This document shows positions 21,691-58,200 of a DNA stretch of 63,059 nt, in pieces; position 1 is the first letter of the stretch, and each line of letters opens with the position of its first letter. Position numbers and translations under genes: made by a program. The stretch spans positions 186,001-249,059 of the forward strand of contig QPGO01000120.1 of the NCBI GenBank assembly GCA_008632985.1, in the 5' to 3' direction. This DNA is from Psammoneis japonica. Taxonomy: Eukaryota. The notes below the pieces were generated by a model that saw nothing but the letters and a program-made list of their open reading frames with translations, was not told where the DNA came from and ran no database searches.

Positions 21691-22113
21691 ATAAGTTGCA
21701 CAACACATGCATGCAGTTCATCATTTTCATGCCTAAATTCACCAACGGCAGGGCACGTATGCCGCTTTTTCCGTTTAAGCCTTAATGTAGAATTGTTTCT
21801 CGAAGCACATCAATCATGTGGGTTCTCTCTGTCCTTTTGGGGTGAAAGAACTTTGCAATTCCATGGCATTGAAGCGTGATGAATTACCCTCAAAAATCTC
21901 CGAGATGTGGAGGTTGGCTCAAGCGACTGATGAGATGAGGACTTGCTTGCTTAAGGTTGGGGACATGTGGTCTTCTCTCCAACATTCTCGAACAATGTGT
22001 CACAACACAAGATGTTGTCATTGTGGTGCAACCCAATCCACATGTGCGCCAATGCAAGATTTTACAAAGCTTGCCACCCTTTTAGAACTTCACTGCTACA
22101 TCTTTGCCACCTT

Positions 22114-23083: not shown

Positions 23084-23285
23084 GATCTCTCTCTTTCTCT
23101 CTCTCTCTTTCTCTGTGTTTTGGTCTCTCTTTCCATCTCTCTCTCTCTCTCGAATGAACGATCAAAATTGGCGAAGCCAATTTTCCGTCAAATGAGACAA
23201 ACAATGGCAATGCAAGCAGCCAAGGCAGAGCCACTTAATCGGATGTTTGTCCAACTGTTTCAGCAATGGCAGGCACAACAACGTT

Positions 23286-23333
23286 GGCCAAAGTCAGGAG
23301 AATGAGACTTTCGCGGTGGCTTCATCAGTGGCC
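23286..23333 (-). ncRNA. Type I hammerhead ribozyme in the PLE terminal repeat
   Basis: Minus strand GGCCA-CUGAUGA-A-GC-CACC-GC-GAAA-GUC-UCAUUCUCCU-GAC-UU-UGGCC. Stems I, II and III all pair. Confidence 0.7.
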
Positions 23334-27800: not shown

Positions 27801-27836
<36 letters not shown>

Positions 27837-27840
<4 letters not shown>

Positions 27841-28863: not shown

Positions 28864-29211
28864 CTCTCTCTCTCTCTCTCGCTCTCTTGGTTGATTGAAC
28901 AAATGAGTTGGCACAGCTGATTTTCCATCAAATTGACCAACAAAGAACAAAGAGTGGCTGAGGCTGGAGCCACCATTTTGGATGTTCACCCACCTGTTCA
29001 GCAAGTGGCAGGCACAACAGCATTGACTGAAGTCAGGAGTGAGACTTTTGCAGTGGCCAGCTGCTGTTGTCAACGTGTGGTGGTTGAAGCTCTTTTGTGT
29101 TAAAAAGATCCAAGGTGAGTGCAGCTGTCACTGTGGGGAGGACAGATGGGTGGATTTGAGTGACTGGTTTTCAGATCAGCAGCAGGTTGGTTTCTCTCTC
29201 TTTCTGTGTGT

Positions 29212-29244
<33 letters not shown>

Positions 29245-29246
<2 letters not shown>

Positions 29247-30170
29247 GCAGTGGCCTCCCTGTTTTTTGCAATCTGGCAGAACAAATCTGGGGGGGGCATT
29301 GGAGATTCAAAGCTTGTGGCATGACAGCAAGTTCCCAAGAATGTGTGCATGGCTGCAGCATGCAATCTTGCGGTCTGGGCCAATGCATCGTCGTGTGCAG
29401 TTGCGAAGGTGGGAGAGTGGTTGTGAGTGGGGAGGGTGGGACACAGCGCCTTTCCAAATTTTTTTAAGTTCACTTGAAGGTGGGTCATTTGGATGAAAGG
29501 GCATGTGGAGAAAGATTGGGTTGGACTGGGGTGCTGCTGCTGCTCTGGCTGCATTTCCAAAAATCAGGTTGCACGCTTTTTGGAAAACTGGTTGCAAGTG
29601 GTTGGGTTTGCATCAATTCCATGGGCTTGCAGGCAACTGCACAGCAGCTTCATCTTGGTTCAAGCATCATGCAGATCAGAGCAAAGGTTTTGAATTGGAG
29701 CAGCGTGCCCATGATGAGACCAGTGAGTGGCTGCTCCAGGCGGGTGGGGGCTGAGCAAGATGGAAGAATGTGCAGACATGAGCTCATCTCCTTTTTGCAG
29801 AGTGCAGTGTGGAGTTGTGAGTCTTAAAGAGAAATGGTCAGGTCCACAAAGTTGACTCAGCTGGATCTGGGGCTGGTGTGACCCAGGTGATGTCAAAGTC
29901 ATTTGGCCTGGAGGTGAAGGCTTCCTGGTGGGTGGCACTGGCAGCAGCATTGGTGATTTTCCAGATGCCAAGTGCATCATCTGCAAAACATTTTGGTGTC
30001 CCTTTCCATCTCTCTCTCTCTCTCTCTCTTTCAGTGGCCTCTCTGACTGCAGCCTGGCAGGATGAAACTGGGGGGCCATGGGAGATGATGCATCTGGAAA
30101 ATGTTGATGTCTGAGTGGAAAGATTGGCAAAAGCATCAGTTGTTTGCATTGTTGCCCAAGCTCCATGCAC
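29245..30170 (-). mobile_element. Two 5'-truncated Penelope-like 3' fragments (about 29247-30005 and 30031-30170), each abutting (CT)n
   Basis: FADDALGIW, PIFLHMPFHPNDPPSSELKKIWK and LGNLLS. Both start (TC)n..CAGTGGCCTC, as at 23455. Confidence 0.8.
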
Positions 30171-31004: not shown

Positions 31005-33317
31005 TTGGTGGCTTGTGTGCCTTGGAAGAAACGTCTTTACCATTGCTTGGATGCCTCGACCTCGGAGGCTCCAAAAGATCAGAATCTCAAATTGATGCCT
31101 CCTTCGAACACGGAGTTCACATCAGCCAGTGACGACGGTGCAGATGCAGTCAAGAAAATTGCTGCAGAGCTTGATGCCATCAGCAAGGAAGGCAACAAGG
31201 AAAATGATGATCCATCAAAAAACAACTTGCCAATTGATTTTGAAAAGTTGATGCTGGACGGAATGAGAATGGTTGGAAACCATCAATTTGGCCTCTTTGC
31301 ACATTGGAGCTTCAATCGCTGCAAGCATTGCAAAAGCAAGAACATCATGTCTGCCAACATTGAGATCTTCAAATTCAAGAAGGACGGATTTGGCTCAGTT
31401 GATTGTCGTTGCTGCACCGGCTGCAAGGAAAACCATTCTTTTCATGCGTGTGAAGAATTGAAAATGCCGTTGGTGGCAAAAGGGAAGAAATGCTCTTGCA
31501 AACAGCTTGTGGCAAATGTCTTGATGCCAGCCAGTCTAAAGTGTGCTGGCATCAATCCTGCCAAAGCAATTGAGTTTTTTGGCGAGGCTGGTCTGATGGT
31601 GCCAACAGAAAGAAACCTCAGAAAGGAAATGGAAAAGACACACACGGCATTGCCAGCAGAGATGCAGTCAACAGCAATTGAAAATCAAAGACGGGTTGTT
31701 GCCGCTGTGAGATCTTCCCCTGATTTCAAAGAGGAGGTCAACACAATCCAGTGGGTGGGGAAGGATGGTGTCCAAAACAAGACCATTTCTGTTGCTGCAA
31801 TGATGGATGCTGCCGGTGTGACTCGCTCTTACAACAACTGCACCACAGGCACTCAGCTTGGTGCTGCATTGACATCCCATGTTCTAGATTTGCCAATGGC
31901 AGTTGGTGCATCACGAACATCTTGCATGAAATGCTGTCATGCAATGCATGACGCGATGTGAAATGGTGAGAAGAATCCTTCGCTTTTTGTCAGAAAGCAC
32001 AAAGGTGAGTGCATGAGCAATTCCATGGATGGCCCGGCAGTGGCAGAGGAATTTGTGCTTGAGAAGTTTGGATGGGACCCACCACCAGACAAGGATGGTG
32101 CATGTCTGGGGGATGATGTTGCTTTGCATGTTGATTGGACAGGGGCCGATGGAGATTCTAAGGGCCACAACCGTTTGTCACGGAAACAAGTTGAGATCAT
32201 TGGTGACAAAGCCGCAGGTTGGTGTCAAAAGCTCCCGTGTTCTTCTCACACAGGAAAAAATTTAACCAAGGCTTTCTTTCAATTGAGAGACAGCAACCCG
32301 AGCTTTCGTGGAGTGGGTGGTCTTGAAAATGCTCGTGTGGCCGCTGTGTCGAGCGACATCAAAAAATGTCTCAAAGAACTGAACGCTGCAACATGGGAAA
32401 AGGGTGCCGAACCAACAAAGGAGCAAATGCTTGACACTGAAAGGAAAATGTTGAATGTTTTCCCTCATCACATGGGGGGCCATTCGGGCTGCATGGACTC
32501 AGAGCATTGTGGCTTTATAAAAACAAAGTTGGGATGCGGGCACACGCTTGAGGAGCAACTCACGAAAGAACGAGAAGAGGAATTGTGCAAAGAGATGACA
32601 AAAAAGGGACATTCTTGCTTCGACTGCAGCTTGGAGCTTAACGATGAAGGTCCACAGAGAGTGATGAGAGAAATCTCTTTGAGATGCAATGACAAGAGCA
32701 TCCTGGGATTGTCCAAGTGCCTCACTGCCAACCAAGTTGAGTCACTTTGGGCACAGGTGACAAAGCAATCTGAGGGAAAGCGCCTCAATCAAAACTGTTC
32801 CGACATGTGGGAAATTGCCGTCGGCTTGGCAGTGCTTGCGAAATCAAATCTAAGCAAGTGCAAAAAAACATTGTTCAATGATCTTGGCTTGGAAGAGTCT
32901 GGGGAACAGAGGAAGTTTTGACTGCGGCATGAGAACAGGCGTCAGAAGAAACTGGCTGTGAAAGCAACCGAATCTTACAAAAATGGCCACCGCAGGAGCA
33001 AAATCGTAAAGCAGGCCTGTGGCAGGAAGCCGAAAGAATCACACAAGTGCAAGCCAGAAAAGGTCAAACCAGGTGAGGACGCAACATTGAAACGCAAGAG
33101 AAAAAATGGGCCATGCCAGAATTGTTCCGGCGAGGGTCACACTGCAGGAAAATGCAACATGCCGAAGAAGCACAAGCAAGATGACCTTTTGCTTGATTCT
33201 GTTTGGTTCGACGGCTGTGACAAGAGTCAGCTTGTGTTGCAAGCAGGTCCCGAGCAAGTGGTTGTTCCATGTGTGATGAGCAGCAGCGGTGCCCGCACAA
33301 GCAGTTCTTCTGAATGA
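31005..33317 (+). pseudogene. Kolobok-type DDE transposase with C-terminal zinc knuckle, interrupted by stops
   Basis: MDAAGVTRSYNN, GADGDSKG, KLPCSSHTGK, HHMGGHSGC...HC, TANQVESLW and CQNCSGEGHTAGKC. Confidence 0.75.
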
Positions 33318-33349
33318 TGAGCAGCAGTGGCAGTGGCAGTTTTGTTGTC

Positions 33350-34700
33350 TCATCGCAAGCAGGCGCCGAACAAGCAGTCAGCTGTTCCAAACAATGATTG
33401 CCAGTGGCAGTGTTGGTGTCTTTTGAAATCCTGAAATTCTGTGCATGGCTTGTCTGGAGCATTTGGCCATGACATTCGAATCACAGACACAAGGCACTCT
33501 GGCAACTCTTTTCGATTCCCAGCACCCTTGACAAAATGCATGTTTGTCACAAACCAACAATGCAACAGATTCCTTCTCAATTGGTTGTCCATTTTCTCGA
33601 CATCATGGTCAACAAAACAACATTGCTCTGAAATGGACTCCAGAAACTCAAGGGACTGTGCCTTCTGTTGATGCTGTTCTGCAACACAAAAATGAAACCA
33701 CTGCCCATGTTTGGAGCAAAGCCGGCCACCACGATGGCAAAAGAGGTGGCCACCCTCAGGCAGCTTCCTCACATCATCTCGCTCCTGAAACGCTTTGATT
33801 TGATGGTGCAACAGAGTGACTGGGTTTTCAAGAGCACAGAGATGGGCAGGATTGGGATGCAGCACGAGCTCATTCCCCTCTTTTTGTTCTTGTGCGGTCG
33901 CATGCGACAGTCCCTGCGAGTCAACGTCAACAAGCGGGCGACAAAGGAGTTCATGTTGCACAATTGCAGTGCCAATTTTTGAAACATCACTTGCACTGTC
34001 TGAAGGCAATGATCAGTCCTTGTGCCGTGTGGGCGCAAACATTTTCAGCTTTGTGATGGGTTGGCCAGTCGTCAGTTGCATCTTCACTGGATGCAGCAGG
34101 TTCGTCACCGGTGCGCCGAGACAAGTTTTTGATGAACCATCCCACAATTCCAAGTGAGCTCGTCGCATGCTTTGATTTGTTTTTTTGTCATGTCCAGACC
34201 CTTCAAATTCAATGCTTGACAAGAGAACCCTTGCAGCTGGCTCGAAACAGTTTTCTGCAATGTCAGATTCTGACATCAGTGCCTGAAAGAATCCACTCGA
34301 CAGTTCCAGGATAGACTGAATGGTTGGAGACCTGTCTTGAGAGTCTGTCAATGGCGAGTCATTGTCTGCCATTGGAAACTTGTCACTGTGGCTCTTGGTG
34401 CAGGCAACAAACTGACGCAACTCGGAACATGAATCAGAAGTCCAGCAGTCCGCGTCACTTCTGGCTCGCAGCAAAACCGCTGAAAGCATCTTCTTCTCAG
34501 ACGCTTGAACCTTGTCACATCTCCTCTCAGCCTTTTCATCCTGTGTCTTGAGTTTCTTGTGTCGCTTCTTTGTGTTGTTGCCTGAACGTGGTTCGTCAAG
34601 AAAAAGAAAAAGCAGCAGGCTGTGAGAGCATGCTGTGGTTGCATCAATGCGTGTCAACATGCATCGACTGTTCTCAGTGATGCAGTCTTCCGCCATGAGA
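33350..34700 (-). pseudogene. KolX accessory protein (P2X7 C-terminal/nanor-like domain)
   Basis: RRNLLHCWF...GAGNRKELPECLVSVIRMSWPNAPDKPCTEF matches the R..AY..F...LG..NR..LP.CVV..IR..FP....YTGF pattern once Tyr>His/Cys is reverted. Confidence 0.7.
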
Positions 34701-34907
34701 CCATTGCATCATGTCGATCATTTGTCATCTGGAGAAGATGCTTTTGATGCAAGTCGGACGGCAGCAACCCTCCGTTGCACTCACCTGGCTTGTCCGAAGT
34801 CGCCATGGTTGCCATGTTGCAAGTGCGGCGAGTGCTGTTTTTGGCAGAAAATCACGAGCTACATTGTCCAAATTCGAGCTAAAAAAGTAGAGACTGACCA
34901 CCCTTAA

Positions 34908-35307
34908 GACGCGTTCCAGCTCTAGCAGGTGGGACCTCGCACTGCTGAACTGTGACATCAACAGTTTTTTGGATCGCGTCGCATGTCGCGCACGCACATT
35001 TCTGCGTGTGACATTCTACGAAATTGTTTCATGCTCCCTGTTTTGCGAAGCCAAAGGCTTTCTATTTTCAACATTTGTGAGAATGAAAATGCGCTGGGTG
35101 TGTTGTTTAATGTCCACAGAATGTGCCCGGGCAAACTGTCAATGATGCACTGCAAGCATGAAGGAGGAGATGCGTTCGTAAAACAGCCTCTTTTTCTGTT
35201 GGCAATCATTTGTGTTTTCATTGCAGTGTAAATTTACTGCGGAGCTCGCACGTAGAATTCCATGGGCCCAATGTCACACGGAGTCCCACCCAGGACTGGA
35301 ACCCGTC
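34908..35307 (+). mobile_element. MITE (400 bp), GAC...GTC family
   Basis: TIRs GACGCGTTCCAG..GGTGGGAC / GTCCCACC..CTGGAACCCGTC. TTAA TSD shared with the Kolobok right end. Confidence 0.92.
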
Positions 35308-35310
35308 TTA

Positions 35311-36300
35311 AAATGCAAATTTTCACAGTCTTGCTGTGCAGGTGGAGCTGGCAAATCTCAAGCTCAATCTCAGCCACAAGAGCCTGGCAGCAGGAGCCCT
35401 CTCATTTTTCATCATGTTGATGTGTTCTTGTTAAGATGCAAATTTGCACAGTCCTGCTGTGCAGGTGGAGCTGACAAATCTCAAGCTCAATCTCAGCCAC
35501 AAGAGTGCAGCAGCAGGAGCCCTCAGAGAAACCAAGGCTGTGCTGCCGCAGCTGCTGCAGCGCCAGCTGATGGTCCCAACCCAGCAACTGCTGCCACTGC
35601 TGATGCCTCCACAATGACAAAGCCGCTGCCCACCATGCCAATGCGGGCCCGCACCACTCTCCAGCCATTGCAACCAAAAATCTTGAATTTCTCATGTGTT
35701 GGCACAAAATTCCTGCGACTCTTGTTGTTGCATGCCCTGGCACCCAATGGAGTCTCCCACAGCCATCCCAAGACAACTGGTCACTTGCACTGTCACACAG
35801 ATGGCTCCATGGTCTCTGCAGCACAGGTGTGTTGGCTGGGCCAAAGAAGCCCCCAGTCATGTCAGAAAGAAAAGGTGCCACACAATTGACACAAGACAAG
35901 GCCTTCTTTGCTCCCCAACCAAGGTTGTTGTTGGCTCTCCTGGGACACAATGGAATCACCCAAGGCCAGCAAAAGATGTCTGGGCACTTGTGCTGTCACA
36001 CAGAAAGCTCCCTTGCCTCTGCAGGTCAGGGGTGGCTGGGGGGCACCACAGCAAGCCGATCACATCAGAAAGAAAAGGGGATGCATCAGCTCAAGACAAG
36101 GCTTTTCCTTTCCAACCATCATTGTTGTTGCCTCCTCCCAGACCCAACAGAGTCTCTTGTGCCCACCTCCAGACAACTGAGTGCTTGCACCATCACACAG
36201 ATGGCTCCCTTGTCTTTCTTGCAGGTTGAGCCACCAAAAGCCATCCCAAGACAATGGAGTGCTTGCACTGTCACACAGATGGTTCACTTGTCTTTGCAGG
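35311..36300 (+). repeat. Degenerate local direct repeats
   Basis: A ~90-bp unit ATGCAAATTT..GGTGGAGCTG..CAGGAGCCCT at ~35312 and ~35436. A CCCAAGACAA..CTTGCACTGTCACACAGATGG-like unit near 35766, 35980, 36168 and 36245. Confidence 0.75.
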
Positions 36301-38149
36301 TTGGCTGGTGCCTCCACACCTTGTGCAGCTGGGCATCTTCTTGTGTGGAGGATTCATGCAAGGGGCTGCTGCTGCTGCTGCCCAAGACAAGGCTTGCAGC
36401 TTTCAAAATCAAGAGTGCAAAGACACCACAGTTGGGCCAAGAACCCACTCAACAAATGCAGGTGGAGTGCATTCTTTGGGGTCCATGTCATGATGCAGGT
36501 GGCAGCAACTCAAGACAATGTGCATTGGTGGTGATGATGATGATCTGGGCCACCACCACATGCTCCATTTTAGTTTCTCAAGTGGCGCTGGCCTGTGCAT
36601 CATGCACCATCTACCCGGCAAGCTTGTTGCTCCAACTGGAGACACCAGCAAGACATGTCATCAAACTCACCACCAGAGTGAACCCCTTGGAACTGAGGAT
36701 GTGTGGCTGATGAACTCTGGCCATTGTTTTCATTTGTGGCAATGGCAAGAGGGAAGAAGATGAGACATTCTTCCCAGTCTCTGTCGCATGGCAATGGCTT
36801 TCCAAGCAGTGGCGCCATTGCTTGCTTTGTGAGATGCAAAGACCATGCCTTGGCAAGTTTAAATTGGCTGGCTTTGGCAGAGAGCAGCAAGCTGACAGAG
36901 GCGGCATGACACCCAACTGCAGTGCTCAGCAGAAATCCAACAGCAAATGGACAAAAATGATGGACGGCAATTGCAAACCAGGTCCAGCACAGGACAGTTG
37001 AGCATGAAAAAGTGAGAAGATGTGGCATCACACTTCATCACATGGAAGTTGCACAAGTGCTTTTTTCACCATGGTCTTTTCCAAGATGGATCTCAGTCTC
37101 TAAATGCATGCTCTGCTCTTCCTCGTCTTTGTCACCAACAGCTCCATGTCACCACATTCCAGAACAAGATTTGCAAGCCATTTCCTGGGCAACCCTCAAT
37201 TCTGCAGACAAGCTTGCCAGGCCATGGTCTTCCAAAATTTTTGTGCCAGACAGTCTGCATTGGTTTGCTTGACTGTGCAAGCAAGTCCAAAACAGCCACA
37301 AGTTGTTCATCAATGGCCCGACACACAGCTGAGCAATCATTGAGCAACAAACAACAAAGAAAGAGACGGCCACACAAACTTGCTTTGAAAAACAAACAAA
37401 CAAAAGCTTGCCTGCATCCATCACTTTTGCCCCCCCCCCCCATCCACATTTCAAATCCAACAGCATCAAACATGACAACCGTTTCCAAAAATGTTCTTTC
37501 CAAAGGAAGAGCAACTTCTTAAAAAGTGGCCCCTGAATCCAAGCAACAGGCATTGCTGCAACAATGTGCTGCCACACCATCAATGGTGCTGCACTCTCTG
37601 TTGATTCTGATGCAACAAATGAGCACAGCCAGTGACATGAGTTGGTGTGCAACAATGCCAATGCATTGCATGAAATGTGTTGAGCCACAAATGACAAATG
37701 CAACTTGCTTTGGCCCTGAAACAAAAGCTCGCCTGCATCTCTTTTGCCCCCCTCCCACAATTCAAAGCATGGTTCACAGCTGCAATGTCTTGAGCAGTGG
37801 AACAACAGAGCAACACTTTGAATGCAGCCAAGTTGCTGCAGCAGAAGAAGCAGCAACAACAGGAAGCACATCATTGAAATCAAAAATGCAGTTGGACAAG
37901 AACGGAAGACATCACCTGCCACGGCGATTCTGTCACAATGGCAAAGACAATCACCACATCATTGCAGCTGTTGGCATCAATGTGGTGTGTGGTGTGGTGT
38001 GAAAAAATGTGCATCTGCTGACCGCGAGTTGAGCCACGCAGGTGTCAACAACTTGAAAAGGGAAAAAATGATCAAATTGTTTGACTCAATGTTTGCAAAA
38101 ATGATGCACAATTGACAACTGCGCAAATTGAAGATCGGTGAACAGAGTT

Positions 38150-39150
38150 AGTGCGTGTGCAACAATTTTGTTTGTCAACAAGTTTCATTCTTGACAAGCA
38201 CTGAAACATGTTGCAGACAAAAGTTGTGGCATGCAAGCAAATTTCTGAGGTGCCATCTCATGTGCAAGCAACTGCAGCAGACAATCATGCAATTGAGTCC
38301 AACACATTGTTGTGCATGGTTGCTGAGGTTTGAGAGGGGTTTGTGAGGGGGGGTCAGCCATTGTTTGACAAGAGTGTGCAAAACCGCACCTTGTTCTCCA
38401 GAAGATGACCCATGTGTGCACTGCAAGTGAGAACTTGACAAGCTCAGCTGGGCCACTGTGTGTGTCAACCCACCGTCAGGGGGTGTTTCAAAGTCACTGC
38501 TTTGCACCGTGAGGTCAAAACATTGAGGAACACACAAAACACTTTCTTGTCCTCCAGAAGATGAGCCATGAGTTGCCCACAATAAAGTGGTTTTGTTGTC
38601 CATTGAAAGCAAGAATTTGACAAGCTCAGCTGAGCCACCACACCTCAAAAACAGGCCGTTGTGCTCTGGATGATTGTGTTGAGAAACATGTTGAGGCACA
38701 TCTTGTTGCTTGTCCTGCTGGAGTGGCAAGTTTTGATGACATTGACAAGAGGATGAAGCTTGCAAAATGCACGGTTCATGAGTGCAAGTCAAGATCCACC
38801 ATCCCACTCCAGAGTCAAGTGCAAAGTTTTGGAGCACACAAAGCTTTTTGTGGAAGGGGCTCTCCCCAAAACATGGGCTTTGACCAAGTGCTGTGTGGAT
38901 GTCCACCAATCACAAAAAGTGATTGTCCCATGTTTGAGCCAGTTTGTTTCATGTGCAGGTTTTTGCTCTACAATGTGGGAAGTGATGGACCCCCATTGCC
39001 ATTGTCGCTCGTTTTGGGCTGCTGGCAAATTCAATGTCATCATCTCCTGCAGCTCTGTCTTTGCACACACATCTCTTGGAGAGCACAAGAACTGCAAATG
39101 CCAAGTCTTCAGATTTCTTTGGTTTCTCTCATGTCTGGACCAATGGTGGT
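38150..39150 (-). mobile_element. Older Penelope-like RT remnant interrupted by another repeat (38380-38650, similar to 17560-17720)
   Basis: PPHKPLSNLSNHAQQCVGLNCMIVCCS..LRNLLA matches the C-terminus of the element at 23480-23650. Confidence 0.6.
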
Positions 39151-39649
39151 GCAATTGAGATTGGAGGAGTGATGAAGTGATGGTGAGCATGTGGTTGGCA
39201 CCGGCGCCATTTTGCCCTCTTCCTTTGGTGCTGCTGGTGGCTGGCTGCGATGATGTGACAACAATGGAGCACTTGACATGAATGGTTGCCATTGTCTTTA
39301 CATTGCGCTTTTGTCTTTGAAATAGATTGCTTCAGAGACCAGAAGAAGCAGATGATGTGTTGTTTGCGCTTCCTCTTCCTGCAACACCCACACGAACTCA
39401 CTCGAGAGTAGAGAGCAAACACACAGACGTTCGTCGCGCAACTCGCGCGATGCCACGTCACGACTGCTCGTGCAACATAACCCGTTAGAAGAGTTCGGAG
39501 GTTCGAGTTCGAGCCGACGAGCAACGGTGGAGATCGATTGGAAATGAGGAGATGAGTGAGGATCGCGACGGCATATTTTCCATTGACTCTATCCAGTATA
39601 CTCATCTCTTGTCGATACTAAAGCCATAAGTTACACTGGTTATACAAAA

Positions 39650-46473: not shown

Positions 46474-47035
46474 TGTGATTCTAACGTTTACAGAAACTTG
46501 AAATGGAAAAAGATGATACCGTGTAGAATTGGAATTCAGAATGAGAAGACTCCAAGACAGATACAGTATGGTAGAGAAAGCGAACTCCGACCCTGATTGA
46601 AACCCGGAGACCGAGCGATCCACGATGCATGCATGACGTCAGCATTACCTCATCCTCATTCATTCGCAATGACTCAAACAACCCACCCCTTCGCAAATGG
46701 AGAATGTGGTTTTGATGTCATGGTGATGTGTTGTTCATGTCATGAATTCACAGCCATGCTGCACTTGGTTGTAAGTTGTCTTCCTTGGGGCCTGAAGCTT
46801 CATCGGCATTGCAGCACACTGAAAAATGTCGAGAAGATGATGACTGCATGCACAAAGAGCACTCGAAAGGAGTTGGATGAGGAAGTGAAGGAGCGCCTGA
46901 AGAAAGACTGAAAAAGAATCTGCTCCATTGCAAGAAACGTTGGCATGCTGGTTTGGCACACATGCATTCAGCCCAGAACTCCAAATGCTGCAGTTTGACG
47001 AGCTTTGAGTGTGAAGATAATTTGGGGACCTCGCT

Positions 47036-47432
47036 GATGCGCTCCAGCTCTGGGTGGGACCTCGCAGTGCTGCACTGTGATGTCAAGAGTTTTTTGGATC
47101 ACATCGCATGTTGCGCACATGGATTTCTGCATGTGATGTTCTACGAAATTGGCTCACACTCCCCATTTTGCGAAGCCAAAGGCTTTCCATTTTCAACATT
47201 TGTGAGGATGAAAATGCTCTGGGTGTGTTCTTTGATGTCTGCAGAATGTGCCTGGGCAAACTGTTGATGATGTGCCACAAGTGTGAAGGAGGAGACACGT
47301 TCGTAAAATTGCCTCTTTTTCTGTTGGCGATCATGCACATTTTCATTGCTCAACAAATTTGCTGCGGAGCTCGCACGTAGAATTCTGCAGGCCCAATGTC
47401 ACACGGAGTCCCACCTGGGTCTGGCACCCGTC
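47036..47432 (+). mobile_element. MITE (397 bp), GAC...GTC family, heavily mutated
   Basis: GATGCGCTCCAG..GGTGGGAC / GTCCCACCTGGGTCTGGCACCCGTC. CGCT TSD. Confidence 0.92.
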
Positions 47433-48261
47433 CGCTGGTGAACCGACAAGCATCGCTGACTTCTTCTTTGATTTTGACTGAACACTCAAGCAGTCGTCAC
47501 AAATCTTCCTCTAAACAGAGCATCTTCTTGGACACATCGAAGATCCGCAAATGTGCTCCAATTGCATTGAATCTGGCGGAAGCCAACACCATGTGAAATT
47601 CGTTTGAAGAGCGGCTTGCCTTTGCGCAGCAGGTTGAGGAAAGCCTGAAATTTGAGCGGTTGGCCTTTTTGGACAAATGAGACGGTGCGTTGTTCATTTC
47701 ATGACAGCAGTGCACTTTGCAATGCCAAGTTTGTCAAGCACAGCATGTTGATGAGAAGCGTTGAGTGGAAGGGCTGAAACAATCAAACGAAGTGGAGGGA
47801 ACATCTGGCTGGGAACAATGGCAGCAAAAAGGCCGTCTGTGCCCTGCCAACTTCGATGGTGGGTACGTTCCGCATGGAGAATTGGCCGGATGGGCCCTTT
47901 GCGTTGCAGTGCATTGTCACGCTCCTGTTGTGGAAAGAGGCCTGTCCCGTTCCTGCCACAAATTTGTCAGTTGGGCTTGCCGATGAGCCCATGCGCCACG
48001 CCACGGCGGCATCTACATTAGTTAAAAAAAAAAAAGCCGCCTAAAATTGTAGCATTCATCGAGTCGAAGATTGCCGATGAGACGAGGATTAATTTAAACC
48101 CGTGTGCATTGACAGAAATTGAGAATCCTCATCAACGTTAAGCAAAATGGGTGAAATGATCCGAATTCGTGAATTCCCTCGCCATGCGAGGTCATAAGCT
48201 GCAACTGCTCAACAAACAAACAAAAATGGCTGCGAGCTTAGAGGTCTTCTGTGACCTTCGT

Positions 48262-51243
48262 CTACAAGTGAGGCAAGAACCGTCGTTCACACCAAAGTAA
48301 AAAGCTGTTCAGCCGTGTGCACAAGACCTGGGCGTCCCCCTCTTTCCCCACCGCCTCAATCAACCTCTGTACATTGTCGTGCACCTTTTCTTTGCTGTCC
48401 TCCGGCTTCTTTTTTGCACCACCAGATCTCGTTCTGTCCACCTTCATCCACGTCATGGCCGCCTTCCAGAAGACTGGAGAAAATGCGTTTTGAAACTCCA
48501 ACAGCGCTTGCTGTTGAGTCGCATTGAGACGTTCCAAAATGTTGTAAGTACTGCCACTGCTTCCATGCAAGAGCTTCTTGAATCCGTCCGTCTCTTTCGT
48601 CGACTTGCGGCTGACGATTCTATCCCAAGAGACAACGTCGGGGACAAAGGGACAGGATTGTTTTTCGGCGACCTTGGCGGCACGAGGAATCGGTGTGTGC
48701 GTACAAAGAAGTTTATTGTTTGATGGTACCTTCAAGAGTACATCGGGAACATGATCTTCATACACCTTCCCATAAAGCTCGTAGGGCTCATCTTTTTCTT
48801 CGGGTGCTACCACGCAGAGCAAGACACGGAGTAAATGAGCATCCAGGAATGGAGAAAAGCAATTCCGTAGAAAATAGGATGATGGAATGGCAAACCATGA
48901 CCCACCGCGCAAACCCTTGTATATGTCAGACAGGAACGCTCGCGTAAATAGTTTAAGTTGAAAGGCAAACGCCACGTCAAAGGCCATGGTAGTTTGGTGG
49001 GACATCATGATTTCAGCATTGGCGTGAAGAGTGTCGAAAGCTCTCCTGTCTCCCTCCAAACAGTCGAACACTTCTCGCAACGTGTCGACTGGGTTCCTCA
49101 CTTCAATTGGATTTCCTTTGCTGTTTTTCCTAGCAGCTTCATCTTGGTCAAGTGTCGCGTGTGCACCAAACATGGCATGGAACAATCTCGTCGCACGTGG
49201 TGCCACGTCGATCTCGAGATCCTCTCGAGTCCTGACGGGCAAAGGCGACTTGTCAAAACACAAAAATCCCAATAATTCCGTTCCAAAACGACCGTGTATA
49301 GTGTGCGTCATAATCGATTCACGGAAACGTTCAGTAGATCGTTTTTGTTTTCGTCGGTAGGGCGTTTGGTCATGTAAATCTGAAAGAATAGACTCCTTGG
49401 TAGTTCGGCGTACTGTGGCTGTTGTGTGCGTAGTAACTTTGATTTGACGATGTGGCAATGCAAAGGTTTGAACCAGATATCGGGCAATTTGCCAATCGGT
49501 TTTCTGCTTGGCATGGGTCTGAAACATAAAGTCTCTCGGAAATGCATAGGGGACGACGACCTTATCCTCCATCCCGTTCTCTGGGTTCTGCTGTTGCCAT
49601 TGTAACAACAAGCAAGCCAAAATCAAACGAGTATCGCCCCCACCGGTGAGTGCTGCACCGGTTACTATTCCACACTGAAAAGCTTGTCGAATAGAAGCCT
49701 TTATGGCATCGAATATGGCATCAAGTACCCATTCCTTCTTGTGTTTTCCAACCATGGTGGAAGAACCATGATGACTCGATGAGTCACTGCTGGTGGCTGG
49801 AAGATCGCCGTAAAGAGTATTGTGAGGCTGATACATTTTCTTTTCTTTTTTCAGTGGAACGATCTTTACACCTGGTGGAATCATTGTGGTGCTACCTTCC
49901 TCCTTGTTGCCGCCGGATTTCGGTCGCAGACTATTTGACGCCCTTTGTCGCCAACAACCCGTCCAACTGGAAAACAAATTTGAGTTTCTTGGGAGCTCAA
50001 GTTGTGTTTTGGGTGCTATTTTTGTTCCGGTTGAAGTCTTTTTGAGGACGTGGTCGCTGTTGCCTTGTTGGCTAGTAGAACACAATGTGTCGGCTGGCAA
50101 TTCTTTGAACACTTGTTCGCAAGCACCATAGCACTCAATGTACCGAGAAACTTCCAGCATAATATTCTTGGCATTCGACGAGCAGCCTTTCGATAACATC
50201 GTCGTGCCTTGCAGCATGTTGCGATTATTATTGTTGTTGCTGGGTCCAACAACTGTGAGGCATGTTCCCGGTTCTAAATTGTAAATGTGTCGACAAAAGG
50301 TTCGTATCAGCCCATCCACACCCTGTACCGTCACACGTTTCCCACCCAAAGTGGTCCCAAAGGTTAAATATTCCGCCACAATGTCCCAATCCAGCGTGAG
50401 ATGACTATTGTTGTTGTTGTTGTGCTTGCCGGGAAGTAGTAGCGAAGGCACTAGACAATCCCAGTACGTGGACAAGGCAACGATCGAATGCCTGTCATTG
50501 TCATCATCATTGTCATTGCGCCTTGATGATGTTGATGATGATGATGCAAAAGCCGCATCCTTGTCCGCCACAAACAAGGGCATGAAACCAAAAGGATCAT
50601 TCCAAGCAAAGAGTTGTAAGGTTGGCTTGTGTACGACAAGGACGGCAAAATGGCCCGACACTTGTTTCAAATACCGTCCCAGAGCGTTTCGAATCATCTG
50701 GTCAGTAGTACGGCAATGCTGTTGTTGTTCGGATGACGATGATAATGATGACAAGGAGGGTTTCGATGCATTGTTGGGTAAGCGAGTCATTTCTTCGACC
50801 TTATCGAGAATTGTCCTGGCAAACGTTTGCTTGCTCGACGACGACATTGACGAAGAAGAAGAATGGAAATTGTACGGAAAGCCGGCACACAAGACGACAA
50901 AATTGTTACTTTCTTGAATACAATCCGGAAAGTTGGACGCCAATACTATCCATACATTATCATCATCAGAAGAAGATGAATCGTCACTGCTACGCCACAC
51001 GGAACAGGGCAATTCCGACGTGGCGGCACCAAACGCCTCCAGAATCTTTGTTTCGACCGAGTCGTCGTCGTCGCCACGACAACGACGATAACGCCGTTGA
51101 CGACGAATGGCGAGCACATGTTGCGAGTTGCCGTGATGGTGACGGTGTGGATGTTGATCATCCATGGTCTCTTTCTCGACTTCTCTGCCAGCTACCGGTA
51201 TGGATACGGCAGTTGTCGATAGAAGACAAATAATGATGTTCAT
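48262..51243 (-). CDS. Asparagine synthetase-like protein (divergent Ntn domain plus adenylation domain)
   Basis: SGHFAVLV..LFAWNDPFGFMPLF, LEPGTCL, ALTGGGDTRLILA (cf. LSGGLDS), HGRFGTELLG and SPFLD. Intact 993-aa ORF. Confidence 0.65.
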   Translation of the reverse strand: MNIIICLLSTTAVSIPVAGREVEKETMDDQHPHRHHHGNSQHVLAIRRQRRYRRCRGDDDDSVETKILEAFGAATSELPCSVWRSSDDSSSSDDDNVWIVLASNFPDCIQESNNFVVLCAGFPYNFHSSSSSMSSSSKQTFARTILDKVEEMTRLPNNASKPSLSSLSSSSEQQQHCRTTDQMIRNALGRYLKQVSGHFAVLVVHKPTLQLFAWNDPFGFMPLFVADKDAAFASSSSTSSRRNDNDDDNDRHSIVALSTYWDCLVPSLLLPGKHNNNNNSHLTLDWDIVAEYLTFGTTLGGKRVTVQGVDGLIRTFCRHIYNLEPGTCLTVVGPSNNNNNRNMLQGTTMLSKGCSSNAKNIMLEVSRYIECYGACEQVFKELPADTLCSTSQQGNSDHVLKKTSTGTKIAPKTQLELPRNSNLFSSWTGCWRQRASNSLRPKSGGNKEEGSTTMIPPGVKIVPLKKEKKMYQPHNTLYGDLPATSSDSSSHHGSSTMVGKHKKEWVLDAIFDAIKASIRQAFQCGIVTGAALTGGGDTRLILACLLLQWQQQNPENGMEDKVVVPYAFPRDFMFQTHAKQKTDWQIARYLVQTFALPHRQIKVTTHTTATVRRTTKESILSDLHDQTPYRRKQKRSTERFRESIMTHTIHGRFGTELLGFLCFDKSPLPVRTREDLEIDVAPRATRLFHAMFGAHATLDQDEAARKNSKGNPIEVRNPVDTLREVFDCLEGDRRAFDTLHANAEIMMSHQTTMAFDVAFAFQLKLFTRAFLSDIYKGLRGGSWFAIPSSYFLRNCFSPFLDAHLLRVLLCVVAPEEKDEPYELYGKVYEDHVPDVLLKVPSNNKLLCTHTPIPRAAKVAEKQSCPFVPDVVSWDRIVSRKSTKETDGFKKLLHGSSGSTYNILERLNATQQQALLEFQNAFSPVFWKAAMTWMKVDRTRSGGAKKKPEDSKEKVHDNVQRLIEAVGKEGDAQVLCTRLNSFLLWCERRFLPHL

Positions 51244-52071
51244 GCCGCCTGTGCGCGGTCGGTCGCGCCGCGATGTCGCGCGTTTGTCTTAATTGCGCCA
51301 GGGCGGATGGCTTCAGGCTCGCATTGTTCGACTGCGCTAACTGGATTTCGCGCAGTTGAGAGCACCAGAGCAGTTTTCCGCACGAAAAATTGCACCGGTG
51401 CTTTGGGAAGAGGGACAGTCGTCGTTTTGTGTTGGCCACACACACACAATGGTTGCAAAGTGAAATTTGGTGGCATCACATTGCATCCAGTGTCTGGTTT
51501 GGAAACAAATGGAGTCATTAAAATTGCTCAGATTGTTGCAAAAAAATGTCAAAGTGTTTGCGTGAACGGCGAACAATCATCTGCTGTGGAGCAGCTGGGG
51601 TCAAGCAATGACAAATGGAGTGTGAAGAAAGGAACATCAATGAAATTGATCTGTGGCGTGTGATCACTGCACTGGCATGCAGTGGCAGGGCCCCAGCTTT
51701 TTTGTCATTTTTTGCTGCGGCATTGTTTTCAGAAGGCACAGCATCGATGCAGCACAGCTGTTCATCAAATTTGGTCAAGAACTTAAAACAGGACAACAAA
51801 ACATCATGGGCGACAAAAATGTTGAGACGAAATGGTGGTTCCTGCTGAAGACAGTGCAGGTGATGAGGAAATGAAGGTCAACACAGAGAACAAGGATGGC
51901 ACGAAGGAGGTGGAGGAAAAGGAAGATGTTTGCAGTGCGTCTGTGACCAGCAATCATCCTCAAGGCATGGGAATGTTTGTGGTCATGCATTGTCCACATG
52001 TCAATCGTGCCACAGTCGCAGATGCACACAAAGGACAGAACAATCATGCAGAGTTGATCGGATGTCGAAAA

Positions 52072-52461
52072 GACGCGCTCCAGGTCTGGGTGGGACCTCG
52101 CACTGCTGAACTGTGACATCGACAGTTTTTTGAATCGCGTCGTATGTCGCGCACGTACATTTCTACGTGATTTTGGCAAAATTTTGCACGATTTTATAGT
52201 GCATTTGTCAGGCTATCCATTGAACAACTTTTCACATTTTTTTCTTCTACGCCATTCTCGAGTGTCTTGAGAATGGCGCAGGGCAGGCGCATTGTCCAAA
52301 ACTTCGAGTACGAACAGGGACAGATGCACTGCAAACTTGGCCGTTTTTTTTAATGTCGAAGACAAACACATCCATCAACCAGAGTACGAACTGCAGAGCT
52401 CACACGTGGAATTCTACGGGGCAAATGTCACAAAAAGTCCCACCTGGGACTGGAACCCGTC
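52072..52461 (+). mobile_element. MITE (390 bp), GAC...GTC family, partly mutated
   Basis: GACGCGCTCCAGGTCTGGGTGGGAC / GTCCCACCTGGGACTGGAACCCGTC. AAAA TSD. Confidence 0.92.
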
Positions 52462-53008
52462 AAAATTGCAAATGCGATCGATTGACAATGTTGACATCTT
52501 GCGTGTCAACAGCAATCGCATCTGGACAATCTGTTGTCACGAACACATTCTCCGAAAGGCCTTTTGTCTGCAGAAGCAGTGCAGAAGCTTCAGGCCATTG
52601 AGAACTCGTTCGGAGAAACCAAAAATCACAGAGCAAAATTCAATCTCATAATTTTCACTTTTCGAACTTCGTTCTACTTTCGTTTGCACTCGTTCTTCGA
52701 GCACAGTGCAGCAGCAACCAGCACATTGTGTTTGTAAGATGACTGGTGCAAAATTGTTCAATGGTGACTCAAATGGATGTCGCCAGAAGTTTCCCAAATT
52801 GGAGGAATGACGATGTCCTCTCTTTTGTCTTTTCCCTGGTCTTGTTGTTGGAATGATGGGAGAGAGCTGGTTGCGCCAAGACATGTTCGTGTGCACCCCC
52901 TTGCAAATGGAGAATGTGTCCCCTGCTGCAAATCTTGAGTCACCTGGAACCAACCACAGCAGCTTGTGACACTTTTGGATCTTTCTCGCAACCATGAAAA
53001 AAGCACGC

Positions 53009-53397
53009 GACGCGTTCCAGCCCTAGGTGGGACTCCGTGTGACATTGGGCCCGTAGAATTCTACGTGCGAGCTCCGTAGTACGAGAATTTAATTAATGGA
53101 TATATTTATCTTCAACATCAAATAAACGGCCAAGTTTGTGGTACAATTATGCCTCTTACCACTCGACGTTTTTGCAAATGCACCTGCCCTACGCGATTCT
53201 TAAGACATTATAGAATCGCGCTGTAACAAAAAATGTCAAAAGTTTTTGGACGGATCGCTCAATAAGTGTACCGTAAAATGACACAAAATATAAAAAAATC
53301 ACGTAGAATTCTACGTGCGCGACATACGACGAGATTCAAAAAACTGTCGATGTCACAGTTCAGCAGTACGAGGTCCCACCTAGACCTGGAACGCGTC
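53009..53397 (-). mobile_element. MITE (389 bp), GAC...GTC family, young TpA-rich copy in inverted orientation
   Basis: GACGCGTTCCAGCCCTAGGTGGGAC / GTCCCACCTAGACCTGGAACGCGTC. ACGC TSD. 18-bp palindrome CACGTAGAATTCTACGTG at 53300-53317. Confidence 0.95.
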
Positions 53398-53579
53398 ACG
53401 CATCACATCGGATTGACCATGATGATGCCTCGCGACTCTTCCCCAATGCCTTCCCAGGATGCTGTTCCTGCCGACACTGTCAACAATGACACTGACACAA
53501 CAGGTGACACGCCAAACGAGATGATGCAAACTGACGCTGCTGTTTTGATGCTCCGCTGCCTCTCACAGATGCTGTCGCG

Positions 53580-54960
53580 AATGCCAGTGCCGCACCTGTG
53601 TTTCTTTCGACCAGCATGCCCAATGCTGTTGCTTGCGCCCTTGTCACAACAGGTGCTGTTGATGCTGTTGTTGTCTTGCACCAATGACACCCACTGTCAA
53701 TTGCTGCAAAATGACACTTTCATTTCCATGCTGCACTGCCTCCAACAAACAATGTCATGAATGCCAATGCCGCACCTGGGTTTGGCTCCACCAGCATGCA
53801 TGACACTGTTGCTCATGCCATTGCTGTTGCAGGTGCTGTTGACACTGTCATTTTGTTGTGCCAACAACGTCCACAATTGAATGGTGCCAACTGACACTGC
53901 TTTCCATTCTCGCCCCACCACCTCCCACAGATGCTGTTGCAAACACAACCATGCCAACATCTCCCCCCCTGTCATCCCCAACAGATCACAATGCTGCTGC
54001 ACCCCGCGCAGATGGGGTTGCCCACTTGCTCCGGCAGTCGTCACCCAAATTCAGCAGGCGTTTGACCCTGACGACAATCCCACTCTTTCTTGTCATGGAA
54101 TGATGGGCCACCAGAAGGTCTGGCTGGTCCCAACACAAGCACATTTGCACTCTCTTTTGTGGTTGTCCTCACTTAGAATGGGAAGGACCAATGAGGAAAC
54201 CAACCACTCAGGCGCAAATTGGGATTGTCTTGGAATGTCTGGCGGCGGCAGGCACTCAATTGGCAACAACATCGTTGGCCAATTTGTGGAAACTGCCACT
54301 TTTGCACATTCTTTTTGCAGCTCTGTTTCTTGTCATTGAACATGCTAACTCAGTGTTTTTAACCAACTGACAATCCCAAGACATGCGCGCCTGCACTCTC
54401 TTTTGCGCAGTTGTCTTCAGCTGGGATGGGGAGGAGCCATGAGAAAACCACTTGTTCCCCCACCTGCTGTGTTGCAGGGAGCTCACATGGTCCAGGTGGG
54501 CTCGACTCGCTGGCTCCCCAATCCTCTGACAAACATTGCGGAAGTGGCCACAGTCAGCCACGTTCTTGCCCCACATCCCTTCATTCTTTGGGGTGTCATG
54601 ACTTGTGCCACAGTGATCCTCCATCAGTGCATCTTCTCTGCACGTGCAGCTTTCATGCCGTGATGTCACCTGAAGGAGGCACTGGAGCATGGGAAAAAAG
54701 TGTGAGTTGGTGCCATTGCACCAGTGGGTGTTTTTGGCACAAGACAGCAACAGCGACAACAGCACCCATTGCAGCAAGGGCAGGAGAGCAACAGTGGCGG
54801 GCATGCCAGTCGAATGAAATGCAGGTGCGGCTTTGGCATCTGTGTGTGCCTGTGGGAGGCAGCGGAGTGAGCGTGGATAAAAAAAAGTGTGAGTTGGTGC
54901 CATTAATTGTGGATGTTATTTGCACAAGACAATGACAGTGTCAACATCACCCATGGCAGT
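53580..54960. repeat. ~180-bp degenerate unit in tandem (53581, 53761) and inverted (about 54660-54960)
   Basis: ATGCCA.TGCCGCACCTG..CAGCATGC..GTGCTGTTG recurs. The reverse complement includes CAGGTGCGGC..TGGCAT at ~54822-54840. Confidence 0.65.
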
Positions 54961-55290
54961 AGCGGCATAGGAGGAACCGTGGGATGAGAGTTTTTACTTA
55001 ACGAAATATACATATACGCCAGAATATGAATATATCCGACTCAACGCATGTGATGATGTCATCACACATTACCCACACCCGCATCCCATAGGACCACTGC
55101 GAAGGGGTGCAAACAACCGAGCGATGACCACTGACCACCGACCAACGAATCGAACGACCAACCTTCTTTCCGCCGTGCATTTGCAATCAAACCTCATCGG
55201 CTTGTTTTGCGGTTGTCAGTACATTGTTGTCGACCCAACCTCACAACTCCTCTCTGTGTGTTTCTCGATAAAAGAGACATAGGCGGAGAC

Positions 55291-58200
55291 ATGCCGAGAT
55301 TTTTGTTTTGTTCAGCAATTCTCTTGCTGAGTCTCTGGATCTCACCATGTTTTGCTACTCGCCCGTTTGGTATTTTCTCGGCTCGCGGCGGATCCGTCAC
55401 TCCTCCCACAAAGAGCGGTAGCAAATCCAAGGCACCCAAAAGAGCCATTCCTGTTCCCCATGAAGCCGTGACAATTTCCAAGGACGACAGTGAGGAAGAT
55501 CCCAGTGTCGATGGACCACTCATGGACAGCATCAACACACTCACGAGTATTTTGTCCGAGGTGGTCGAACGCGAGAATCCGCGTATTCACATGCTCTTTA
55601 ACAAATTCTACAAGTATGGCAAAACACGCGCCATTGATACCAACAATCAAGAATCACTTCTAGCCATGGTGGAGTGTGCCAAGAATTTGAGTCCCGAGGA
55701 TGCCTTGGGAGTCATGCGCATGTTGACTCTGGCACTCAATCTCGTCAATGCGGCCGAAAACCATCACAAGCTGCGGATTGTACGACAACGGGATTTAGAG
55801 AGTCATCAAGAGAATTCACCCGTGGGGCCATTGCCAAAGATTAGTGACAGTATGAGAGGGACTATTGATGATTTACTGGCAAACAAACAAGCTACAGCTG
55901 AGGAGATTTACAACCAGCTGCTTCAACAGCGGGTCGAAATTGTCTTGACGGCGCACCCCACGGAAGTCAATCGAAAAACACTTTTGCGCAAATGTAAGTC
56001 TTTTCGAATAAAACTTATGTACTGGTGATGATTTACGAGGTTGCTTATTTTCTTTGTCTTCTTCCCAATCATATAAGTCCGCGTCATTACAGAAACGTTG
56101 GCGTACTTGGATCGGCAAGACTTGCACCCCTACGAACGCAAAGAGGCTGAATCCAAGCTAAAACGCACCATTGCCGCCATTTGGGGTTCCGACGAAATTC
56201 GAAGAAAGAAACCGTCTCCCCAACAAGAGGCAGCCGGTGGCAATGCCGCCATTGAATCCGTCTTGTGGGATGCCGTACCGGCCTATCTCCGCAAATTGTC
56301 GGCACAGTGCGAGGCGTCTCTGGGAAAGCCACTGCCGGTGGATGTGGTGCCTATTAAATTTGGTTCGTGGATTGGTGGAGATCGGGACGGCAATCCCAAT
56401 GTCACGCCCCAAGTCACGACCGAAGTCATTACGCAGCAACGACTCCGTGCGGCAAAGTTGTTTCTGGACGACATGCACAAACTCTACTATGAACTTGCCA
56501 TTTCGTCGCGGTATTCGCCAGAAATGGAGGAATTGGCCAATTCTGTTACGGAATCGGAAGATGAATTGGAAAAGTATAGACGAGTGTTGGGACATTTGCG
56601 TTTGCGATTGGTCAAGACTGTGAAAGAGTGTGAGGCGGAACTTGCCAAACAGATATCGACCGCATCGGCAGCACGTGTAGCGGCCGAAGCGAGCAGCACG
56701 GTTCAACAACAGCACAATTTAAAGGGCTGGGAAGATGTCGAACCCATTTATGAATCCAAGGATTTGATGGAGCCGCTCTTGATTATGCACAGGTCCTTGG
56801 TCGATACTGATTTTGAATTGGTAGCGGACGGACACTTGGCGGATACGATTCGTCGATTGGCCGTCTTTGGAATGACCTTGGTGCCGTTGGATATTCGAGA
56901 GGAGTCTACAAAGCACACGGAGGCATTAGATGCTATTACGAAATGGTTGGGATTGGGATCGTACAAGTTGTGGGACGAAAAAACGAAAATGTCGTGGCTC
57001 GAGACCGAACTCAAGAGCAAACGTCCGCTGTTTAGGCCGGAAGAGATGGAAAGTCTTGGTTTTGATGAGCCCGTTTTGAAAACGTTACGAATCTTTCAAA
57101 TGGCTTCTGGTCAACACGCCGAAGCGCTTGGAGCATATGTGATTAGTCAAGCTCAGACGGCCAGCGATGTCCTTGGTGTCATGTTGTTGCAGCAACAGTT
57201 TGGCATGATGGCCAAAGGGAATATTATGAGGGTTGTTCCTCTCTTTGAGACTTTGGATGATTTGGAGAATGCCTCCAAAGTTATGGAAGAGTTATTCTCC
57301 ATCAAATTTTATGTCAGCGCAATCAACGGAAAGCAAGAAGTCATGGTGGGGTACAGCGACAGCGCCAAGGACGCTGGTCGTCTTGCTGCGTGCTGGGCGC
57401 AATACAAGTCTCAAGAAGGCATGGTCAAGGTTGCTCAAAAGTTTGGCATTGAACTCACCTTTTTCCACGGCAAGGGCGGCACTGTGGGTCGCGGTGGCAA
57501 CCCCGCACTGTACAGAGCAATCATGAGTCACCCACCGAACACAATCCATGGTCGATTCCGTGTCACAGAACAGGGAGAAATGATTACACAAAACTTTGGA
57601 GCACCCGCTATTGCGGAGCGGACTCTGGATATCTACACGGCGGCAGTCTTGTGCGAAAAGTTTACCAAACACGAGGAGCCGACAGAGGAATGGAGACAGC
57701 AAATGGAACGCATTTCAGAAGTCTCCTGTGCAGACTACAGATACCTCGTGCGAGAAGAACCACGCTTTGTGCCATACTTTCGACAGGCTACGCCAGAGTT
57801 GGAACTCGGAAGACTCAACATTGGCAGTCGACCTGCGAAACGTAATCCCAAGGGCGGTATTGAAAGTCTTCGTGCTATACCGTGGACGTTTGCATGGTAC
57901 GTTTTCATGGTTCTGTATTATTTTACATTTCTGAGTCGTATAATTGCTCAATGCCATTCTTTTACTTACTTCAGGACGCAGACACGTACGCATCTCTCTG
58001 CGTGGTTGGGTGTTGGAGCGGGACTCAAGACCAATGTAAGGGTATTGTCGTTGTGTTTGTGTCTCATTCCTACCGTGTGTATCTGGGCATACGGCTAACA
58101 ATCTCCGTACGTCAACGTTGCCTACCGTATCTCTACCTCAATGATACAGAATGACGAAGACTTGAATGAACTCAAGGACATGTACGAGAATTGGCCATGG

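Follow-up and report, generated by a model that had tools for sequence, protein, structure and literature searches.

How does a transposon rich in TA dinucleotides come to lie inside DNA from which nearly all TA has been erased, and how did its relatives nearby come to be poorer in TA by degrees? The question arises in a 63,059-nucleotide stretch of contig QPGO01000120.1 of the diatom Psammoneis japonica (hereafter the window), where an initial annotation had described four MITE copies as a series from unmutated to fully TpA-stripped, produced by a process acting after insertion. All four copies were confirmed in the sequence where they had been placed and with the motifs quoted for them, and they are real, far beyond chance: their 20-nt terminal pattern matches the window four times against 0.01 matches expected. 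Three features revealed the nature of these elements, which we name here by their first position: firstly, each is bounded by an exact 4-bp target duplication (TSD); secondly, the 53009 copy ends in terminal inverted repeats of 25 bp (23 of 25 positions matching), and the same ends recur in all four copies; thirdly, the 53009 copy has no internal ORF longer than 46 amino acids. Thus, the elements are MITEs, that is, non-autonomous, non-coding DNA (class II) transposons. Within the window, blastn returned no copy beyond the four and no autonomous element with the same ends was found; metagenome scans with the MITE terminal patterns yielded 0 loci.

Alignment of the copies revealed two interiors, one common to 53009 and 52072 and another common to 34908 and 47036, which define subfamilies A and B, respectively; homology across all four copies extends over no more than ~103 bp of the 5' terminus and 72 bp of the 3' terminus. 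The two subfamily-A copies are identical at 307 of 391 positions and differ by 35 transversions, so that much of the difference between them must be ordinary or lineage divergence. The positions of the copies and of the features around them are collected in Table 1.

Table 1. Four MITE copies, their target duplications and the surrounding features, in window coordinates (o/e, observed over expected).
Feature	Position	Strand	Description
MITE copy, subfamily A, unmutated	53009..53397	-	389 bp; 29 TA (o/e 0.93), 28 CG
TSD of 53009 copy	53005-53008 and 53398-53401		ACGC
MITE copy, subfamily A, partly mutated	52072..52461	+	390 bp; 11 TA, 24 CG
TSD of 52072 copy	52068-52071 and 52462-52465		AAAA
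MITE copy, subfamily B	34908..35307	+	400 bp; 8 TA, 21 CG
TSD of 34908 copy	34904-34907 and 35308-35311		TTAA; TA retained on both sides
MITE copy, subfamily B, most mutated	47036..47432	+	397 bp; 3 TA, 14 CG
TSD of 47036 copy	47032-47035 and 47433-47436		CGCT
TA-stripped island	51340..54877	.	Entire space between two genes; contains both subfamily-A copies
Flanking gene ORF of island 51340-54877	48262-51288	-	
Flanking gene PEPC of island 51340-54877	from 55135	+	
Short TA-stripped intergenic island	46650..48010	.	Surrounds 47036 copy
Long TA- and CG-stripped island	32840..39278	.	Surrounds 34908 copy
Second high-copy repeat, left part	~52000-52071		Ends at 52071
Second high-copy repeat, right part	52462..52710	.	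Loose contig ends at 52462 and 52710

Dinucleotide o/e ratios divide the DNA of the window into two alternating kinds: gene-bearing DNA, with a TA o/e of 0.4-0.67 and a CG o/e of ~1, and kilobase-scale islands, with a TA o/e of 0.02-0.1, a CG o/e of 0.05-0.7 and TG+CA raised up to 1.7-1.9, in which GC content remains near 0.48. The TA-erasing footprint is bounded, in that islands are stripped and gene DNA is spared, with edges ~50-260 bp from the flanking ORFs. The domains in the long ORFs of the window are ones usual in eukaryotes (XPG/chromo, alpha-kinase, FG-GAP, porin, MRS2 and PEP carboxylase). For the PEP carboxylase ORF, every one of the best named hits comes from a diatom (Odontella, Trieres, Ditylum, Thalassiosira and Cyclotella), at identities of at most 71%, and a dinoflagellate origin was rejected for this reason. 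The PEP carboxylase frame is split into two ORFs (55135-56028 and 56077-58098), probably by a short intron. The genes on either side of the island that holds the subfamily-A copies are divergently oriented, and TA returns ~50-260 bp from each of their ORFs. A 994-bp tandem duplication (1520-2513 versus 2513-3503, 91% identical) lies within the long XPG/chromodomain ORF.

No particular transposon could be assigned to the islands themselves, since Pfam gave 0 hits on 18 island ORFs (17 fully inside an island and one across an island edge); the single hit among the 19 ORFs queried was a dehydrogenase fragment in normal DNA. A gene-fragment paralogue that lies in an island (16401-16951) has lost 10 of 11 TA and 24 of 28 CG relative to the copy in normal DNA, a stretch at 8715-9283 adjacent to a short-chain dehydrogenase ORF; the sole TA retained is a TTAA, and further stripped paralogues lie in islands at 22209-22477 and 27932-28198. 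Other repeats were also noted in the islands. A segmental duplication within an island (22111-24181 versus 27834-29993) falls from 97% to 72% identity along its length. Finally, inverted repeats of ~200-260 bp that are 70-78% identical (53551-53930 versus 54675-54982) flank ~1 kb of the island shared by the subfamily-A copies, and this pair may mark a further foldback or TIR element in decay.

All four MITE copies sit within such stripped DNA: their 600-bp flanks hold 0-10 TA, an o/e of 0.00-0.24. The flanks of the 53009 copy contain four TA on the left and none on the right, and its whole island retains only eight TA once both MITEs are excluded, so the initial description of a TA-rich copy in a TA-depleted island holds. 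No copy is more stripped than its own flanks, the TA o/e being 0.12-0.93 in the copies versus 0.00-0.24 beside them.

Because the interiors of the two subfamilies differ, TA counts over whole elements are not strictly comparable, and the TA sites of the shared termini offer the fair comparison. At ten homologous terminal TA sites, loss amounts to 0/10 in 53009, 5/9 in 52072 (in which nine of the ten sites are informative), 7/10 in 34908 and 9/10 in 47036. The motifs first quoted are present: the 53009 copy carries CTAGG, CGTAC, CGTATG and CGTAGAATTCTACG; the 52072 copy carries CTGGG and CGCAC but retains CGTATG; and the 34908 copy carries CGCATG and CTGCG. The 47036 copy was described as having lost many CG along with its TA, and in this respect its counts (Table 1) stand well below those of 53009. 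The proposed order from unmutated to stripped is thus found at the homologous termini, but the copies represent two subfamilies rather than one lineage, and the supposedly fully stripped 47036 copy keeps three TA. The existence of intermediate copies indicates that the process is cumulative, as had been proposed, and not all-or-none.

Loss of CG does not keep pace with loss of TA. If the 53009 state is taken as ancestral, 52072 has lost 16 of 21 TA, yet only 3 of 28 CG have become TG or CA (one further CG has become TA). Moreover, islands with a TA o/e of at most 0.1 span CG o/e values from 0.05 to 0.7. These comparisons between sequences suggest that CG loss is separable from TA loss and is probably a distinct, slower process.

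The direction and INDEPENDENCE of TA change were examined in the pairs 53009/52072 and 34908/47036. The 29 TA of 53009 are seen in 52072 as 16 TG/CA (seven TG and nine CA), five TA and eight other changes. In reverse, just two TA of 52072 face TG in 53009 (16 versus 2, binomial p = 0.0013). Transitions in this pair are concentrated at TA, where they affect 16 of 58 bases as compared to 18 of 274 other bases (p = 2e-5). The subfamily-B pair has the same polarity on a smaller scale: four TA of 34908 face TG/CA in 47036, and there are 0 reverse cases. At 16 dinucleotide steps, one member of this pair reads TG and the other CA, a discordance for which the same ancestral TA (or CG) must have been hit once in either copy. 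Among the sites of the shared termini that are mutated in both B copies, four are concordant and three discordant, as expected of independent hits. Independence is visible even inside one copy, where a CTAGG site differs between the two terminal repeats of a single element.

From the 16 discordances and the terminal-repeat differences, we infer that the copies acquired most of their changes independently of one another. The presence, in stripped DNA, of one untouched copy, two intermediate copies and one nearly finished copy likewise points to a process that is post-insertional, gradual and independent from copy to copy. In-place, cumulative and largely per-copy-independent mutation is thus supported by the alignments, and the claim that the process acts after insertion stands on both the directional excess and the mostly independent changes of each copy.

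We think it likely that the four copies are passive recorders of an in-place host TpA mutation within silent non-genic islands. A host process would rewrite TpA to TpG or CpA on DNA in place within these islands, and alongside it a slower, separable change would convert CpG to TpG or CpA. Every copy would have inserted into an already stripped island and then lost its TA singly, independent of the other copies. Given such one-by-one loss after insertion, the amount of TA lost would mostly reflect residence time, plus some chance and context. The 53009 copy would be a recent insertion of a currently abundant unmutated form, still untouched by the process. Targeting appears to be set by the chromatin domain and not by the repeat family.

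The abundance of the family was gauged from one public sample, which may be the same sample from which the assembly was made, available as the k-mer contigs of three runs and compared with positions 51800-53700 at a likeness of at least 80%. At this threshold, 5655 contigs of run X1 match the 1.9-kb stretch. Their summed depth is 1e5-4e5 on the MITE bins versus 37-47 on single-copy bins, which corresponds to a family of roughly thousands of copies, summed depth being a rough guide and not a copy number. A 0.16-Mb run has contigs on the 53009 copy only, three of which show 0 differences from it (over 53060-53172, 53143-53240 and 53225-53275), which indicates that the unmutated form is the abundant form.

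The same contigs revealed that the 52072 MITE is nested in a second high-copy repeat (summed depth 5e4-9e4; Table 1). An exact empty-site joint from 52067 to 52462, which skips 394 letters and shares four, occurs in at least two contigs; other copies of the host repeat around 52072 are without the MITE insert. At four of five variant sites among those listed, the host repeat reads CA here and TA in most of its other copies. Among the joints listed, those near the 53009 copy (53007 to 53403 and others) contain extra or changed letters and have flanks of raised depth, and we read them as probable paralogous empty sites rather than as an empty allele.

These depths bear on whether repetition itself could be the trigger. 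In a RIP-like scheme, duplicates would be recognised at rare episodes such as sex, and the 53009 copy would be one that has not yet passed through such an event. The islands are indeed rich in repeats, as judged from contig depths and self-matches, and the TG and CA outcomes of 52072 fall into strand blocks (5 runs, p = 0.035), as bursts would give, although the subfamily-B pair has no such runs. In the chlorarachniophyte Bigelowiella natans, according to the accessible part of a preprint, mutation affected two silent viral inserts in some lines only, 11 of 15 (Mettrop et al., bioRxiv 10.64898/2026.01.13.699255), which would also suit episodes. By contrast, the abundant form of the family is unmutated despite being the most repeated sequence seen. 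Moreover, the bins of single-copy depth (37-47), at 51800-51927 and 52760-52887, also lack TA and are stripped as completely as repeats, which indicates that stripping reaches beyond still-recognisable repeats, with the reservation that old repeats may have diverged below 80%. On balance, repeat-triggered episodes appear an improbable source of the series.

If such a process exists, the TA that it has spared should carry information about it. The old islands, 22.9 kb in all, have 58 TA left, of which 40 are Y-TA-R, the corresponding figure for normal DNA being 178 of 1096 (p = 1e-17). These 40 comprise 20 TTAA, 17 CTAA/TTAG and three CTAG, and ATAT, GTAC and ATAC/GTAT are not represented among the 58 TA surviving in the 22.9 kb. 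The survivors are scattered through the islands, without clustering. That surviving TA is mostly Y-TA-R is new here, and suggests that the base after the A sets the rate of editing. A per-strand editing model in which the rate depends on this base (highest for T and C, with T no slower than C, lower for G and lowest for A) fits the ten context classes, and polarised events agree weakly with it (pyrimidine 18/34 versus purine 8/30, p = 0.04). Two TTAT sites of the 53009 copy, 53108 and 53149, read TG in 65-68% of family depth among the variants listed. The asymmetry of products (NTGN versus NCAN) has the predicted direction in four of six asymmetric contexts, a comparison that CpG products confound. 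Against the context rule, all five Y-TA-R sites of 53009 are altered in 52072.

In 52072, retained TA instead goes with adjacency to CG (5/9 versus 0/12, p = 0.006), and most of the retained TA are concentrated in a single patch (runs p = 0.03). Inside the MITE copies, TA adjacent to CG (CGTA or TACG) is the last to disappear, making up 7 of 11 survivors at 52143-52415, 3 of 8 at 35017-35253 and 3 of 3 at 47142-47378. It may be that methylated CpG protects the adjoining TA, or that a patch was spared.

Most probably, the chemistry underlying these changes would be one in which the adenine of 5'-TA-3' is deaminated on a single DNA strand at a time, which would give TG where the strand itself is deaminated and CA where the opposite strand is; deamination appears to be faster where a pyrimidine comes after the A. 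That the diatom has a DNA adenine editor of this kind, directed by chromatin domain, working on one strand at a time, preferring 5'-T-A-pyrimidine, slowed beside CpG and so slow or intermittent that new insertions remain intact, is a tentative proposal that we hold with much less confidence than the existence of the in-place process.

The same outcomes could be produced from the other base of the dinucleotide. If the thymine of TpA were modified, for example hydroxylated, and then mispaired or misrepaired to C, no adenine deamination would be needed: a TA-to-CA change cannot be told apart from a TA-to-TG change of the opposite strand, and the context effect is equally readable as a preference for R-T-A. 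Weighing against such a T-centred chemistry, enzymes that deaminate adenine with a preference for a 5' T or U are known, according to the available text of the same preprint (Mettrop et al., bioRxiv 10.64898/2026.01.13.699255), and we regard the thymine route as rather unlikely. Should the adenine-editor reading be true, a MITE family thousands of copies strong would provide a built-in clock for the rate and rules of the editor. The Y-TA-R and CpG-adjacent survivors would then be first hints of the enzyme's preference, and the abundance of the family means that a whole-genome survey could yield rules of rate, strand and context.

Some of the losses probably have a different history. Transversions private to one copy in the shared termini number two in 53009, three in 52072, none in 34908 and four in 47036, an order that disagrees with the order of TA loss (n = 4); a single ordered series that ends in the newest insertion, as first proposed, is plausible but only partly borne out. 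The 53009 copy has private states of its own, so it is not pristine. At 53346 and 53364, all four copies have TG or CA where TA is found in 15-26% of family depth (variants listed), and CGCAC and CTGCGG are common to three copies at sites where 53009 has TA. These two observations suggest that some losses came through masters that were already mutated, and were probably inherited by transposition.

Carried to its limit, such inheritance would mean that mutation took place at donor sites before transposition and that the series consists of still mobile TA-poor lineages, not of elements decaying after insertion. The shared states just described would be expected if this were so, as would the fact that the three surviving TA of 47036 are all retained in 34908 too. 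However, the 16 TG/CA discordances of the B pair need independent hits in both copies, the terminal repeats of one element differ at a TA site, and inserts never exceed their flanks in stripping. For these reasons, we consider donor-site mutation unlikely as the general explanation, somewhat more so than either repeat-triggered episodes or thymine chemistry. The initial annotation had itself raised a TA-poor transposing clade with shared changes as an objection to its series; the discordances mean that such a clade cannot account for the bulk of the change, while the few shared losses may well be inherited.

Contigs at depth 32-47 match the assembly with 0 differences over 51800-52098, 52682-52960 and 53371-53674 (299, 279 and 304 bp, 882 bp in total), spanning the stripped flanks and both outer MITE junctions, and this exact match indicates that the stripped sequence is present in accurate reads, in agreement with the earlier argument against a regional artefact. 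The idea that modified bases in silent chromatin misled sequencing or assembly, which might explain why CG and TA both read as TG/CA and only in certain domains, can be set aside with near certainty, given these accurate k-mer contigs without differences, an intact TA-rich insert within an island and paralogues that disagree between TG and CA.

In-place TpA mutation of silent islands, the reading we prefer, has a close parallel. The mutator had one earlier description, in the 2026 preprint on B. natans, and the process at this locus adds a second case from another lineage. The portions of the literature available to us contain no report of TpA-erasing mutation in diatoms, and the available portion of a 2025 preprint on diatom transposons makes no mention of it. 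As set out in the accessible part of the B. natans preprint, hypermutation restricted to TpA was watched live, in mutation-accumulation lines, in the DNA of giant viruses and virophages that had become integrated, at ~1000-fold the background rate (Mettrop et al., bioRxiv 10.64898/2026.01.13.699255). The changes were almost only TpA to TpG or CpA, at ~6e-7 per site per generation, and 210 of 211 were AT-to-GC; the authors proposed an ADAT2-like adenine deaminase, and the available main text is without an analysis of neighbouring bases (Mettrop et al., bioRxiv 10.64898/2026.01.13.699255). 

As far as that text goes, the two systems are alike in three respects: firstly, both involve A:T-to-G:C transitions at TpA that give TpG or CpA by strand; secondly, both affect bounded, silent, foreign-derived regions and leave the remaining genome normal; thirdly, the long-term footprint in both is TpA depletion with a gain of CpA and TpG. 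The present locus thus shows a B. natans-like footprint in a diatom at single-site resolution. The differences are equally clear within the same limits. The host there is a chlorarachniophyte and here a diatom; the targets there are viral inserts and here MITEs, nests of repeats, pseudogene copies and entire intergenic spaces. Here TA is depleted almost to saturation (TA o/e 0.02-0.1), as compared to 0.45 in the B. natans viral region, and CpG too has been lost (to a CG o/e as low as 0.05; 24 of 28 in the gene-fragment paralogue), whereas the B. natans lines have no CpG component. In our case the process is deduced from the comparison of copies, whereas in B. natans it was observed as it happened.

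RIP, in Neurospora and other ascomycetes, converts CpA to TpA and so enriches TA. It resembles the process described here in that dinucleotide-specific transitions ruin transposons in place after insertion and leave sharply bounded blocks beside intact genes. It differs in its direction, since TA is destroyed here at a GC content of ~0.48, and in its hosts, since a diatom is not a fungus; moreover, nothing in the window points to a need for duplication or for a sexual phase. Silenced transposons also undergo decay of their methylated CpG. The change of CG to TG or CA, seen both in the islands and among the older MITE copies (28, 24, 21 and 14 CG from 53009 to 47036), is of this kind, and such decay covers only the CG part, which is slower than and separable from the loss of TA.

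ADAR enzymes act on double-stranded RNA and prefer a G after the edited A. In hyperediting of this A-to-I type, as summarised in the accessible part of the B. natans preprint, A is changed to G, with T or U favoured on the 5' side of the edited base (Mettrop et al., bioRxiv 10.64898/2026.01.13.699255), and the change seen here is alike in both respects. By contrast, what is altered at this locus is DNA in place, namely DNA transposons with intact target duplications and unique or single-copy flanks, and a preference for G after the A is opposite to the pattern here, where TAG and TAA survive. If the adenine-editor reading is true, and as far as the B. natans account extends, a signature common to a stramenopile and a rhizarian would speak for an ancient genome defence, SAR-wide and different from RIP, ADAR and APOBEC.
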